From Candidatus Eiseniibacteriota bacterium (lineage in GTDB: Bacteria > Eisenbacteria > RBG-16-71-46 > CAIMUX01 > VGJL01): 64,000 nucleotides of DNA. Numbering within the stretch: position 1 is the stretch's first letter; every line of letters starts with the position of its first letter. The stretch covers positions 53,337 through 117,336 of the forward strand of contig JBHGAY010000018.1 of NCBI GenBank assembly GCA_041946735.1, written 5' to 3'. The notes under the pieces are model-generated. The model worked only from the letters and a program-made list of their open reading frames with translations. It searched no databases and was not told the origin of the DNA. A program made the position numbers and the translations under genes. This document shows, in pieces, positions 56,379-61,452 of this stretch.

Positions 56379-57250
56379 GCGGCAGGCCACCGGCGCGGGC
56401 CCCGCGGCGGCACTGCGGCGGCCCAGCGCTCGATCGCCGCGAAGGCGAGGGCGATCGCGATCCCGGCGATCGTGTCGAGGGCGAAGTGCCAGCGGCCATA
56501 GACGGTCGCAAGGAGCATTCCCGCCGTCGGCAACAGCGCGATCGTGAACCACCGCCTCTCGTAGCGCCACGCGAGCAGGAGGGCCAACGTCCCCAGCGCC
56601 GCATGGCTGCTCGGGAACGCGCCTCCCACGACGCCACCCGCCCGCGCCGCCGCATGCGTGAGACCGTAGAAGACCCCCCGGTCGAGCGGCGGCGGCAGCG
56701 GCGGGTAGGCGTAGAGCGGACTCGTCGCCGGTAGCCAGACGTAGAAGATCTGGCAGAAGAGGAAGCAGCCGGTGAGCCACGCGACGACGCGGCGGAGGTT
56801 CCGTTCGTGGCCTCGCACGGCGAGCAGGATCGCCGGCATCGGCACGAGCAGGAAGTAGGCGAAGTAGCAGGCATGCAGGACTTCGGAAAGCGCCGGCCAA
56901 GGCATCGCCTGCGCGAGGAACAAGCTCGGCTGCCCGCCGAAGATCGCCCCCTCCAGCCGCTCGAGCGGCCCGTCCAGGATCCAGCGATCGAGGCCGACAT
57001 TGATCCTGCCGCTCAGGCCGTAGAGCGGCGGGAACAGGGCCAGCGGAACCAAGGCCCGCGCCCGGTCGAGCGCCGGGATTCCGGACGCCCGGGCCCGCGC
57101 GAGCGCAAGCAGCGACGCGCCGCCGAGACCGGCAACCAGCACGATCGCCAGCGCGCCAGGCGGACGCAGCGCCGCGGCCGAGGCGGCCGCGAAGAGCAGC
57201 CAGGCGCCGAGCAGCGTTTCCGCGACGAACGGCGGCCAGGCCGTCGCTAT
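56375..57250 (-). CDS. PAP2-family membrane phosphatase/phosphotransferase
   Basis: LPATSP, GAFPSSHAA, TVYGRWHFALD; start codon unresolved. Confidence 0.8.
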   Translation of the reverse strand: MATAWPPFVAETLLGAWLLFAAASAAALRPPGALAIVLVAGLGGASLLALARARASGIPALDRARALVPLALFPPLYGLSGRINVGLDRWILDGPLERLEGAIFGGQPSLFLAQAMPWPALSEVLHACYFAYFLLVPMPAILLAVRGHERNLRRVVAWLTGCFLFCQIFYVWLPATSPLYAYPPLPPPLDRGVFYGLTHAAARAGGVVGGAFPSSHAALGTLALLLAWRYERRWFTIALLPTAGMLLATVYGRWHFALDTIAGIAIALAFAAIERWAAAVPPRGPRRWPAA

Positions 57251-57966
57251 CCCTCCCTCGGGGCCGGCGGGAGCGGCGCCGGCGGCGGCGCTGCAGGTGG
57301 CGGTGCCGCCGGCGGTGGCGGCGCGGCCGGCGGGGATCCGAAGAGGTACCGCCGTCCATCCCACAGGACCGGGATGCCGCGGACGATCGCGAAGACCGCC
57401 GTCGCGTAGACGAGGACGTTGGTCGCCACGCGGAAGCCCGAGGCGAAGCCGCCGTGCGCTCCCATCCGATCGAGGGCGAGGACGACTCCGAGCGCGCAGA
57501 ACGCGACCGCCTTCAAGATCCCGTAGCTCGCGCGGCTCCATCGCGAGGCGGTCAGCTCGCGAGCCCAGCGCGTCTCCATCATCGTCTTCTTCCCGAAGGG
57601 GGTCTTCCCCTTCTGGAAGGCGAGCGATCGCACCATGTCGGTCAGAACGGTCCGCGTCACGATCGCGACCGGCACCCAGTAGGGAACGAGCGGCTCGCCC
57701 GAGGGCCCGCGCCGCACCGCGAAGAAGACCCACAGCACCAGCTCGACGATCCGGTCGCCGGCGATGTCGATCATCGCGCCGGACTCCGAATCCTCGTGCC
57801 GTTTGCGCGCCACCCAGCCATCGACCGCGTCCAGGAAGATCACGACCGCCAGCAGGACGACCATCGCGAGGTCGAGTCCCCACCAGTGAAGCTGGGTCTT
57901 GCGCGCCCAGACGAGGATCGGCACGAACAGGAGGAGGACGCGAGCCAGCGTGATCAGGTTCGCCAC
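57247..57966 (-). CDS. CDP-alcohol phosphatidyltransferase family protein
   Basis: ANLITLAR; DAVDGWVARK...GAMIDIAGD signature. Confidence 0.92.
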   Translation of the reverse strand: MANLITLARVLLLFVPILVWARKTQLHWWGLDLAMVVLLAVVIFLDAVDGWVARKRHEDSESGAMIDIAGDRIVELVLWVFFAVRRGPSGEPLVPYWVPVAIVTRTVLTDMVRSLAFQKGKTPFGKKTMMETRWARELTASRWSRASYGILKAVAFCALGVVLALDRMGAHGGFASGFRVATNVLVYATAVFAIVRGIPVLWDGRRYLFGSPPAAPPPPAAPPPAAPPPAPLPPAPREG

Positions 57967-58024: not shown

Positions 58025-58708
58025 TCAGGAGATCACTCCGAGCCAGTCGCGCATCAAGAACAGGAAGCGTCCGATCGCCAGCGAGACGCGCGCCATCACG
58101 GTGAAGCCGAACGAGGCGCCGAAGCCGACCATGATGTAGATGATGCCGGTCTGCGCGCCCCACTTGACGACGCCCTTGTGCTCCATCGAGAAGAAGAAGT
58201 AGGTGAGCGTCCCGAGCACTCCGACCAGGACGAGGATCGCCCAGAGCCCGTCGATCGCCGTCGCGAAGCTCGCCTGCGTCACGAGCGTCCCGCGCAACTG
58301 CGGGAAGAACGTCCCCTCGAACGCCGCCGGCACCGAGAGCCCGGTGTAGTACCCCATGAAGATTCCGATCGGGATCCGCACGAGCCACGCCCGGCCCGGG
58401 ACGAAGCGCATGAAGTACAAGAGCCCGATCAGCGCCGGAACGATCAACAGGAAGTTGTGCGGCGCCATCGGATTCAGCACCGACCAGCTCCAGCCGGCCT
58501 TCAGGTCGGTGAACGAGGCGAGAAACGGCTTCAGCATCACCGGGACGATGACGCGGTGCCACATGAACCCCACCGCGTAGCCGTTGGAGATCCCGACGAA
58601 GAGATGCTCCGCGAAGCGGTAGAACGGATTGTCCCGGTACAGGAACGAGAAGACGCAGAGGGTCAGGAAGACGCCGATCCACACCCACAGGTCGTGGCTG
58701 ATGTTCAT
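58025..58708 (-). CDS. Uncharacterised polytopic membrane protein (cassette gene D)
   Basis: About 6 hydrophobic segments; SFLYRDNPFYRFAEHLFVG, MVGFGASFGFTVMAR; ATGA overlap. Confidence 0.85.
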   Translation of the reverse strand: MNISHDLWVWIGVFLTLCVFSFLYRDNPFYRFAEHLFVGISNGYAVGFMWHRVIVPVMLKPFLASFTDLKAGWSWSVLNPMAPHNFLLIVPALIGLLYFMRFVPGRAWLVRIPIGIFMGYYTGLSVPAAFEGTFFPQLRGTLVTQASFATAIDGLWAILVLVGVLGTLTYFFFSMEHKGVVKWGAQTGIIYIMVGFGASFGFTVMARVSLAIGRFLFLMRDWLGVIS

Positions 58709-59574
58709 TGCGCCTTCCTCCTCTTGCCGGCGAAGTAGGCGATGTTGCCGACCACGACGAACGCCATGATCAGCAGGTGGGCGAGAGATTGCGAGCCCAT
58801 CCCCTCCATGGCGCGTCTTCGCCCGTCGACGTGGTAGGTGTTCTCGACGAGGGTCTCGTACTCGGCGGCCCCCTTCATTCCCCCGATGATTCCGGAGAAC
58901 TGCCCGGTCGCGAAGTAGGGGTAGAAGTCCGGCGCGCTGACCGCCGTGCATCCCGCGCCGACCTTGACGCCGAAGCGGGTCTGCGCGAACTGCACGAACC
59001 AGAGCGGCGAGCTGCCTCCGGAGATCGCGCAGATGATTCCGACCTGGTCGTAGTTGCGCACTCCCCGCATCACCGGGAGCGAGTCGGTCGCCGTCCCGAA
59101 GAAGTCGGTCGGGTAGATCGCGGAGATGGACCGACCCATCGACAGGATCGGCACGATCGGCGGCGGCTGCCATCCGAGGAAGGCGATGTCGCGCCCGTAC
59201 ACCACCGAATCGGCGGGACTGGTCGCGCGGCTGTTGAACTCCTCGATCACCTGCTGCATCGCCGCGTTGGCGAGACCCGCCGACTCGATATAGAGGCTGA
59301 TCATCAGCACGCGCACGTGCCGCGCCATGGCATGGCGGATCAGCGCGATCGTCATCGGCTGGTTCTCCGCCTCGGTCTGCGGCACGTAGTCGGTGGAGAT
59401 CATCAGGACTTGCCGCTCGGGGTCGATCGCTTCGATCGCGTCGAACAAAGACTTCGTTGGCTTCTGGATGTTCATCGGCTGCTCGAACGGAAAGATCAGC
59501 GGGACCAGGATCACGAGCGCGAGCGTCAGGAAGATGATCCGGCGATCGATGTGCAGGAAGCGCTCCCAGTTCAC
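58705..59574 (-). CDS. Uncharacterised membrane protein, TM-alpha/beta domain-TM (cassette gene C)
   Basis: N- and C-terminal TM helices; AGCTAVSAPDFYPY, GGMKGAAEYE; GTGA overlap. Confidence 0.85.
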   Translation of the reverse strand: MNWERFLHIDRRIIFLTLALVILVPLIFPFEQPMNIQKPTKSLFDAIEAIDPERQVLMISTDYVPQTEAENQPMTIALIRHAMARHVRVLMISLYIESAGLANAAMQQVIEEFNSRATSPADSVVYGRDIAFLGWQPPPIVPILSMGRSISAIYPTDFFGTATDSLPVMRGVRNYDQVGIICAISGGSSPLWFVQFAQTRFGVKVGAGCTAVSAPDFYPYFATGQFSGIIGGMKGAAEYETLVENTYHVDGRRRAMEGMGSQSLAHLLIMAFVVVGNIAYFAGKRRKAQ

Positions 59575-60230
59575 TTGCCACCTCCCAGCCAGCTCCGCTC
59601 GATCCCGGTCAGGATCTTCAGCAGCGTCGCGGTGGCGCCGAGGGTGACCCCGAGGTCGATCCCTCGCTTGGAAGCGGTGTTCGGGACCGCCATGATCCAG
59701 GAGGAGACCCGCGGCAGGTAGGGCGAGATCGCCTCGCCGATCGGCACCTGCCCGAGCATCACGACGAAGGCTGACCCGAGGAGCAGCGCGGCCATCGCGT
59801 TCTTCGCGCGGAACGACCGGTACGCGGCCGACGCCATGTAGAAGGCGAGCAGCGCGAAGAGGGTCGCTCCGAGCGGCGTGATCATCTGGTTGTAGATCGT
59901 CTGGATGTCGTACTTGAAGCCGCCGACCTGCGTCGGAAGCCAGCCGTCGCCCGACACCCCTCCGAAGAGGCCGATGAAGGACACGGCGAGCAGGCCGAAC
60001 AACGTCGCGTACGAGTGCCGCCAGAACTGCCCCTTCCGGCGGATCCGATGCCAGTGGTGCTGGATCAGGTTGCCGAGCCCGAGGATCAAGGCGAAAGCGC
60101 TGATGATCCGGAGCAGCGTGTCGCGCAGGTAGGCGTTGAATGTCTCGGCGTTCGGGTGCGGCAGGAACCGCGACGTCAAGCCGAGGATCCCCATGACGAT
60201 CAGGAGCGTCAGCGGAAGCTTCTCGCGCAT
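59571..60230 (-). CDS. Uncharacterised polytopic membrane protein (cassette gene B)
   Basis: About 6 hydrophobic segments; LLAFYMASAAYRSFR, VPNTASKRGI, GIERSWL. Confidence 0.85.
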   Translation of the reverse strand: MREKLPLTLLIVMGILGLTSRFLPHPNAETFNAYLRDTLLRIISAFALILGLGNLIQHHWHRIRRKGQFWRHSYATLFGLLAVSFIGLFGGVSGDGWLPTQVGGFKYDIQTIYNQMITPLGATLFALLAFYMASAAYRSFRAKNAMAALLLGSAFVVMLGQVPIGEAISPYLPRVSSWIMAVPNTASKRGIDLGVTLGATATLLKILTGIERSWLGGGK

Positions 60231-60243
60231 CCTCCCCTCCCCC

Positions 60244-61452
60244 CTAGTATCCGTGTGTCGAGAAGATGACGCCGGCGTCGATCCCCGCGAGCAGCGAGAC
60301 GATCGTCCCGCCGATCAAGAGGATCATCATGAGCAGCTTCGCCGCGTCCTGGCCCTTGAGCGCCCCGAGCATCAGAGGCTCGCGGGCGATATAGGCGGAG
60401 GCGGCGTACAGCTCCTCTCCCATCAGCGTGTAGTCGCAGGCGACGACGAAGAACGGAAGCTGCGTGACCTGGTCGGTCCCTGCGATCTGGATCGCGCCGG
60501 TCGCAGCTCCGGTCTCGGCCAGGATCAGCGATTCGCCGTAGAACGGTCCCATGAAGAAGTTCGCGGCCGGCTTCTCGCGGACCATCAGCCCGCCGACCGC
60601 CGCCGCGTAGGCGAGCGCGTTCTCCACGATGAAGAAGACCGAGTTGGGATCGAAGGTGTCGGGGCGCCCGACCGCCTCGTGGGAGCCCTTCACCACCTCG
60701 CGCGCGACGGTGTAGACGACCGGATCACGGCCGGGAACTCGGATCGTCGTCCCGTACTCCGCGGTCTTCTTCGCCACCTCCCCGAGGAGGTTCAGCGAGG
60801 CGACCGTCCCGATGTCGGAGATGTATCCGGTGCCGGGAATGTAGAGCAGGGGCCGCCCCATCTCCGTCGCGCGGCCGACCGCCTCGTCCACGGCGTCGAG
60901 CCCGGCGATCTTGCGGATGAAGAGGTGGATGCCGCTACGAGCCTTGCGGATGTAGAGAAGGATCACGCCGCCGAAGGCGAGGATGGCGATCGCCACGCCG
61001 ATCAGGTCCGTGTTGAACCATCCGGTCGTCGCCACGGCCGGCGCGCTGGGAGGCGAGACCGCTTCCCCGCCGGGGCCCACGGCGACGACCCGGTAGCGGA
61101 AGGCAACGCCGCGGGGCAAGCCCTCGTCGTTGATGCTGGTCGCCGTCGCGCCGACTTGATCGACCGAGGCGAACGAGTCGACCGCGGCCGGTGAGCGTTC
61201 GATGCGGAACGCGGTCGCTCCGCTCCCCCCGCTCCATGCGATGTGGAGCGCCGTCCCATCGTCGTTCGGGACGTCGGAGACCGTGACCGAGCCGGGCGCG
61301 ACGGGCGGCGGACCCGCTGGAGGAACGACGGCGACAGCGGTCGCGCTGTCGGGTGGGCTCTGATCGACGGGGGGCGCCTGCGCCACGCTGACTGCGGTGA
61401 ACAGAAGCAGCAGCAAGGCCAAGACCCCCAGCTGTGCAGTCCATCGTCTCAT
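60244..61452 (-). CDS. FN3 domain plus DUF6754-like membrane protein (cassette gene A)
   Basis: Signal peptide, FN3 (SDVPNDDG..IAW...YRVVA), TM, IRKIAGLDAVDEAVGRATEMGRP, ESLILAETG, QLPFFVVACDYTLMGEELYAASAY, C-terminal TM; family name recalled, not searched. Confidence 0.8.
   Translation of the reverse strand: MRRWTAQLGVLALLLLLFTAVSVAQAPPVDQSPPDSATAVAVVPPAGPPPVAPGSVTVSDVPNDDGTALHIAWSGGSGATAFRIERSPAAVDSFASVDQVGATATSINDEGLPRGVAFRYRVVAVGPGGEAVSPPSAPAVATTGWFNTDLIGVAIAILAFGGVILLYIRKARSGIHLFIRKIAGLDAVDEAVGRATEMGRPLLYIPGTGYISDIGTVASLNLLGEVAKKTAEYGTTIRVPGRDPVVYTVAREVVKGSHEAVGRPDTFDPNSVFFIVENALAYAAAVGGLMVREKPAANFFMGPFYGESLILAETGAATGAIQIAGTDQVTQLPFFVVACDYTLMGEELYAASAYIAREPLMLGALKGQDAAKLLMMILLIGGTIVSLLAGIDAGVIFSTHGY

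Follow-up and report, generated by a model that had tools for sequence, protein, structure and literature searches.

The window analysed here is a 64,000-nucleotide stretch of a Candidatus Eiseniibacteriota genome (assembly GCA_041946735.1, contig JBHGAY010000018.1, positions 53,337 to 117,336), and it contains a cassette of four membrane-protein genes, here called A, B, C and D. Our preferred reading, to which we assign a probability of about 0.5, is that this cassette encodes a four-subunit inner-membrane module, of which the genome has six diverged copies, and that the module works with three further proteins (S, M and X) in ATP-driven translocation. The reading builds directly on the observed gene structure, on the paralogy and synteny of the copies, on the modelled folds of A and C, and on the finding that M, X and S co-occur with the module and are linked to it in operons. 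Rather than a self-contained, mirror-image transporter, the module is probably one component of a membrane machine of a new kind.

The host assembly (4.89 Mb in 72 contigs, 94.8% complete, with a GC content of about 70%) contains six full A-B-C-D sets, located by tblastn on contigs C10 (the window), C29, C12, C19, C71 and C11. The gene order is the same in all six copies, with gaps of -4 to 118 nucleotides. Between the paralogs, the cytoplasmic domain of A is the best conserved part (44–55% identity), which fits a cytoplasmic partner shared by all copies; the corresponding values are 41–46% for D, 37–42% for B and 34–37% for C. The C protein of the window shares 34–36% identity with its five paralogs in the same genome, but 54–77% with its counterparts in other assemblies of Eisenbacteria, WOR-3 and Fermentibacteria. 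The window copy is thus closer to orthologs in other phyla than to its own paralogs, indicating that the copies are old and specialised.

The same arrangement is found well beyond the host genome. When species-representative genomes were scanned with a profile of C, more than 610 stretches matched, from which 78 loci of other uncultured lineages were kept for synteny analysis. At least one complete A-B-C-D set is present in 71 of these; six more are cut by the ends of contigs or loci, while the last (L025) lacks A, its B-C-D being preceded by 200 N. No other gene order occurs among the 78 loci, and the arrangement is far beyond chance. By record title, the loci belong to Eisenbacteria, WOR-3, Stahlbacteria, Edwardsbacteria, TA06, CSSED10-310 and Cloacimonadota, with further ones from an "Ignavibacteria" and a "Deltaproteobacteria" metagenome-assembled genome. 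Whole cassettes are repeated in tandem (ABCDABCD...) in eight of the 78 loci, and two A genes in a row, giving A-A-B-C-D, are present in six (L039, L047, L055, L068, L072 and L086). DUF6754, the Pfam family of A, is detected in 40 of 41 relatives of the host genome, with one to nine matches each, and in all 251 sampled genomes of the phylum of genome G041, usually with about five matches per genome; in 14 control model genomes it was not detected.

One of the six host copies reveals the putative partners. On contig C11, a seven-gene row in the order S-M-X-A-B-C-D is located on the minus strand (L015:6965-14186). S, encoded upstream of M, is a small membrane protein of 160 residues. M (635 residues) belongs to the MutL/GlmL family (PF13941, E-value 1.3e-118), and X (373 residues) gives weak, sub-threshold matches to the barrel-sandwich domains RnfC_N and NqrA_N. 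Each of the three genes is present once in the host genome; they are not adjacent to the window cassette, being located on this other contig. Just upstream of the seven-gene row are glycine-cleavage P-protein genes. Eleven loci were fetched for the proximity of their M and A genes; ten of them have the order M-X-A-B-C-D, and the eleventh shows M-X-A at the thresholds used. S lies upstream of M in five of the ten fetched loci other than that of the host, several loci being cut at an edge.

MutL (PF13941) is distributed much like DUF6754. It is present in 40 of the 41 relatives of the host genome, the remaining one (G035, 94% complete) having neither family, and in four of five distant cassette-bearing genomes. 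The phylum of G041 is uninformative with respect to co-occurrence, because all 251 of its genomes carry DUF6754; the phylum of G042, in which DUF6754 is patchy, gave the sharpest test. In a sample of 151 genomes from the latter, each family is present in 19: both in 18, DUF6754 only in one (G354), MutL only in one (G363) and neither in 131. The MutL frames of G363 are short and of classical length (446 and 480 residues). In ten of the 18 double-positive genomes, MutL and DUF6754 share a strand, with MutL 1.6–2.4 kb upstream. As related genomes are not independent, all of these counts represent an association, not proof.

The ASKHA phosphate-1 motif DCGSTTTK is retained in all eleven M sequences. 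M scores 204 bits against the GlmL equivalog NF040745 (cut-off 475 bits) and 193 bits against NF040744 (cut-off 600 bits), and with scores so far below the cut-offs, the label of a coenzyme-B12 mutase protein is probably wrong for M. The last 25 or so residues of M contain a tail motif, roughly W..AL..YP, in most of ten orthologs; this tail may be a docking or membrane-targeting helix. A second MutL subfamily (E-values of about 1e-94 to 1e-102, in open frames of around 850–1030 residues) is present in about half of the relatives G004–G034 and is absent from the host; examples are G020:C4:59381-60790 and G027:C33:5384-6793, and it could be fused or a separate system. As for X, some of its relatives carry PF13375 or PF00364, or are named "KOW domain-containing". 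A homolog with 71% identity (P0298) comes from a record titled as a Thermoplasmata archaeon; transfer, mis-binning or a gene truly carried by archaea could each explain this. The SLBB/Poly_export protein encoded upstream of some cassettes was considered as a form of X and rejected (BLASTP E-value 0.43). Searching the Protein Data Bank (PDB) with the single sequences of M and X returned nothing meaningful.

The A-B-C-D module is probably not self-sufficient, because its C11 copy follows the single-copy genes S, M and X and because the DUF6754 and ATPase families co-occur. We infer that the window cassette is an orphan membrane module of the seven-gene system S-M-X-A-B-C-D. In the preferred model, the cytoplasmic part would consist of M, the GlmL/MutL-like ASKHA ATPase, and X, which is barrel-sandwich or KOW-like, complemented by the small membrane protein S. 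In every module, the conserved cytoplasmic domain of A would be the docking site of M and X, and ATP turnover would drive a conformational cycle in B and D, by which a substrate would be moved across or into the cytoplasmic membrane, in either direction. Specificity would differ between modules, being set by the outward domain of A and the periplasmic domain of C. That the proteins form a complex, that M and X dock, that ATP is used and that a substrate is translocated, in whichever direction, is what we infer from the observations described; substrate translocation appears the most likely output. A more far-reaching proposal, which we make tentatively, is that the system represents a new class of ATP-driven translocator with a GlmL-like engine of the actin/Hsp70 fold, rather than one of the ABC, P-type or AAA+ kinds, in which several exchangeable four-subunit modules, distinguished by their outward-facing binding domains, would be powered by a single S-M-X engine.

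In the window, the four genes are tightly packed. The TAG stop codon of A is followed by 13 nucleotides (GGGGGGAGGGGAG) and the ATG of B; the stop codon of B and the GTG start codon of C overlap as GTGA, and the stop codon of C and the ATG of D overlap as ATGA. The GC content at third codon positions of A to D is 0.89–0.96, against an overall GC content of 0.63–0.68, which in a genome of about 70% GC fits real coding sequence. The features of the locus are listed in Table 1. Upstream of A, a 139-residue open reading frame encodes a membrane protein with a weak DUF2127 match only. Downstream of D, after 58 nucleotides, starts a CDP-alcohol phosphatidyltransferase gene (PF01066, E-value 4.2e-15; positions 57247-57966, minus strand), which is absent from the recurrent and scanned neighbours of the 78 related loci and from the gene calls around the five other host copies. 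A first-pass annotation of the window had described four co-oriented genes with the 13-nucleotide gap and the two overlaps, and the re-read junctions and coordinates agree with it. Its assignment to the DUF6754 type holds, A being a member of that family, and Pfam and NCBIfam likewise yield no recognisable enzyme, ATPase or transporter among A to D. The four-gene order, for which it had proposed a neighbourhood survey, is kept in the host genome and in the related loci.

Table 1. Positions in the window of the four genes and of their principal elements.
Feature	Positions	Strand	Description
Gene A	60244..61452	minus	402 residues; signal-peptide-like amino-terminus, FN3-like outward domain, transmembrane helix, probably cytoplasmic DUF6754 Rossmann-like domain, transmembrane helix
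FN3-like domain of A	61033..61296	minus	residues ~53-140; predicted to face outward
Rossmann-like domain of A	60379..60921	minus	residues ~178-358; six-stranded, probably cytoplasmic; most conserved part of the cassette
A-B spacer	60231..60243	minus	13 nucleotides, purine-rich, Shine-Dalgarno-like as read from the sequence
Gene B	59571..60230	minus	219 residues, ~6 transmembrane helices, amino-terminus probably inside (lysine plus arginine bias)
Gene C	58705..59574	minus	289 residues, GTG start; transmembrane helix, probably periplasmic six-stranded Rossmann-like domain, transmembrane helix, basic carboxy-terminal tail
Rossmann-like domain of C	58825-59475	minus	residues ~34-250
Gene D	58025..58708	minus	227 residues, ~6 transmembrane helices, amino-terminus probably outside (lysine plus arginine bias)

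The match of A to DUF6754 (PF20539) comprises residues 143–388 and profile positions 3–248 of 257, with 358.8 bits against a cut-off of 27 and an E-value of 1.7e-107. Neither Pfam nor NCBIfam has a family that B, C or D matches above cut-off. When the members of the B and D families (90 and 84 sequences) were scanned one by one against Pfam at E-values up to 1, only scattered hydrophobic noise was obtained, and in the ESM Atlas both families lead only to unnamed clusters. Structural matches of B in that database have TM-scores of at most 0.29 apart from its own kin, the best named one also reaching 0.29. In some lineages, gene B contains an insertion between its amino- and carboxy-terminal halves (L112, L113 and L115; L051, L054 and L058); the gap between the two matches is about 840 nucleotides in G318 and G336 and about 250–310 nucleotides in G444 and in loci of the CSSED10-310 type.

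AlphaFold2 models were obtained for residues 143–402 of A (predicted local distance difference test score, pLDDT, 89.4; predicted template modelling score, pTM, 0.81) and for C (pLDDT 93.1, pTM 0.88). The two models are alike, each containing an amino-terminal transmembrane helix, a six-stranded alpha/beta domain and a long carboxy-terminal transmembrane helix, with the helices and strands of the alpha/beta domains in the same order. Orientation in the membrane was estimated by crude, family-wide positive-inside counts of lysine plus arginine. In A, the domain-side flanks have 7.0 such residues and the outside 0.9; in C, 7.9 fall on the two tails and 4.6 on the domain side. By the same measure, the amino-terminus of B would be inside and that of D outside. 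The counts favour a cytoplasmic domain in A and a periplasmic domain in C, on opposite sides of the membrane.

From this layout, the first-pass annotation had proposed that A+B and C+D form a self-contained complex of two homologous, oppositely oriented halves, functioning as a secondary (ion-coupled) transporter. Several of its elements find support: A and C share the succession of transmembrane helix, alpha/beta domain and transmembrane helix in the AlphaFold2 models, and the family-wide counts, crude as they are, favour the cytoplasmic and periplasmic placement of the two domains. The likeness of A and C in layout and in the order of secondary structure elements, the opposite facing of their domains and the inside and outside amino-termini of B and D that the counts suggest, and the lack of an ATPase gene beside five of the six host cassettes all speak for such a transporter. 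The motifs of A and C that had been matched by eye do fall on equivalent elements (beta5-alpha-beta6-alpha-transmembrane helix), but no profile similarity accompanies them. Family alignments were built from 80 sequences for the A domain, 90 for B, 92 for C and 84 for D. BLASTP detects no similarity between A and C or between B and D, and the hhalign probability is 0.8% for the first pair and 1.3% for the second. Alignments of the soluble domains or of the carboxy-terminal halves in local, relaxed and global modes are no better than column-reversed controls; the A and C domains, for example, score 17.4, and their reversed controls 17.3 and 19.5. The claim that the pairs are duplicated, inverted homologous halves is therefore not upheld. 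The mirror-symmetry reading is partly supported, in that a common layout and fold class are, while common descent is unproven by the fold alone, because Rossmann-like folds are among the commonest. Nor do B and D match any known secondary-transporter family, and the self-contained transporter overlooks the six paralogous modules and the linked ASKHA ATPase, X and S, with the family both co-occurring and operon-linked with the ATPase and X. An inverted-repeat secondary transporter is the least likely of the readings, and we regard it as highly improbable. In complex predictions, A (residues 143–402), B and D with C gave a median score of 0.66; scores were 0.00 and 0.00 with the partner replaced but 0.68 with A replaced, and they are taken neither for nor against binding.

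The amino-terminal region of A, in which a signal peptide was judged by eye, has no Pfam match at E-values up to 10, fn3 (PF00041) included. The same region of the paralog in L011 matches the fn3 hidden Markov model with an E-value of 0.01, below cut-off. BLASTP aligns the region of A with the membrane-adjacent fn3 repeat of relative P0133 (residues 367–438, as called by Pfam) with an E-value of 4e-05 and 23% identity across 61 residues, and PF00041 is carried by 12 of 120 listed long relatives of A. Indirectly, these matches suggest that the amino-terminal domain is FN3-like. The outward part of A may be absent, may consist of a single FN3-like domain or, in relatives, may extend to about 800 residues, a variability that fits module-specific outward binding. 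The only host A without an outward domain, of 258 residues, is that of the C71 copy (L014:9245-10021), which closely follows a gene whose amino-terminal sequence reads as that of a methionyl-tRNA synthetase; methionyl-tRNA synthetase, as identified by Pfam, also adjoins cassettes in six of the 78 related loci, including L055.

Receptors typically join a variable ectodomain to a conserved cytoplasmic domain, as A does, and many copies per genome would also suit a transmembrane sensor, in which A would be the receptor, its outward domain sensing a ligand or surface contact and its cytoplasmic domain signalling to M and X. Against this, no subunit contains a known signalling domain, three further conserved membrane subunits per module would be unusual, and the C71 copy has no ectodomain at all. 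We consider a sensor quite unlikely.

By sequence profile, A and C find nothing meaningful in the PDB. Foldseek searches of the PDB gave no match at an E-value of 0.001 or below for the A model and one generic GT-B match (E-value 8.1e-04) for the C model. Such GT-B-like structural matches are one of two hints at a machine for envelope building or surface anchoring, which would flip, export or anchor a glycan, a lipid-linked precursor or a surface protein, with a glycosyltransferase-like or nucleotide-sugar-binding domain in A. They tie, however, with matches to sirtuins, RCK domains and dehydrogenases, and by sequence no glycosyltransferase family is present in A to D. The other hint comes from neighbouring genes in nine of the 78 loci. 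Within 200 nucleotides upstream and on the same strand, Wza-like Poly_export/SLBB proteins are encoded in five loci (L062, L067, L071, L076 and L077); within the same distance downstream, Wzi capsule-assembly proteins (two) and PMT_2 plus TPR proteins (two) are encoded in L086, L090, L017 and L029. These loci are a minority and mostly from related lineages, whereas most neighbours are housekeeping genes and none is universally conserved in the survey of the 78 loci. A link to envelope polysaccharides is possible in this minority; as an account of the module in general, the envelope machine is unlikely.

Among the subunits, only A and M can be assigned to a family, and none has a relative of solved structure that its sequence would reveal. 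The full-text literature yielded no paper on DUF6754, PF20539 or PF13941. Among the papers listed for GlmL and membranes, none was about GlmL by its title or the opening of its abstract, the term probably having matched units such as g/ml. To judge by the families searched, the module belongs to a widespread, real system without a studied counterpart, its subunits matching no studied transporter, pump, secretion system or enzyme. It is very common in uncultured lineages and its subunits are strongly conserved. If the system is indeed driven by ATP through an actin-fold engine that serves exchangeable membrane modules, it would embody a new principle of membrane energisation. It would then also account for a sizeable block of membrane genes that are annotated as "hypothetical" in Eisenbacteria, in WOR-3 and in candidate lineages related to them.

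The catalogued entry closest to the module, DUF6754 (PF20539), covers A alone and gives no function; its proteins are named only "DUF6754 domain-containing protein", and B, C, D, X and S are without any family. M shares with the GlmL/MutL protein of coenzyme-B12 glutamate mutase (PF13941; NF040745) the family match and the ASKHA phosphate-1 motif. It is about 150–180 residues longer, with frames of 604–641 residues against a profile of 450 positions, and the genes beside it encode X and the membrane proteins A to D, there being no B12 mutase among the annotated genes of the C11 locus. Among the closest known counterparts are also MT0777 (PDB entry 1kjn) and the RCK/KTN Rossmann-like domains.

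The module bears a resemblance to Na+-NQR and Rnf. Loosely alike are the cytoplasmic X with its amino-terminal barrel-sandwich domain, as suggested by weak matches, the two small subunits of about six transmembrane helices, and the pair of further subunits, one bitopic with a cytoplasmic Rossmann-like domain and the other with a periplasmic domain. However, B and D match neither the Rnf-Nqr family, whether alone or across their 90 and 84 members, nor each other, and the conserved columns of A to D contain no invariant cysteines or cofactor motifs. X reaches only 20.5 of the 25.6 bits required for RnfC_N and 11.8 of the 321 bits required for nqrA, and the ASKHA ATPase has no known counterpart in those complexes. 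ECF-type ABC importers combine one energising module with several scattered, substrate-specific membrane modules. No ABC ATPase or EcfT-like gene is present in the cassettes, in the scanned neighbours of the 78 loci or in the C11 locus, and each module here has four subunits instead of one. The likeness to these importers is one of logic only, with a single S-M-X set facing six A-B-C-D sets in the host genome.

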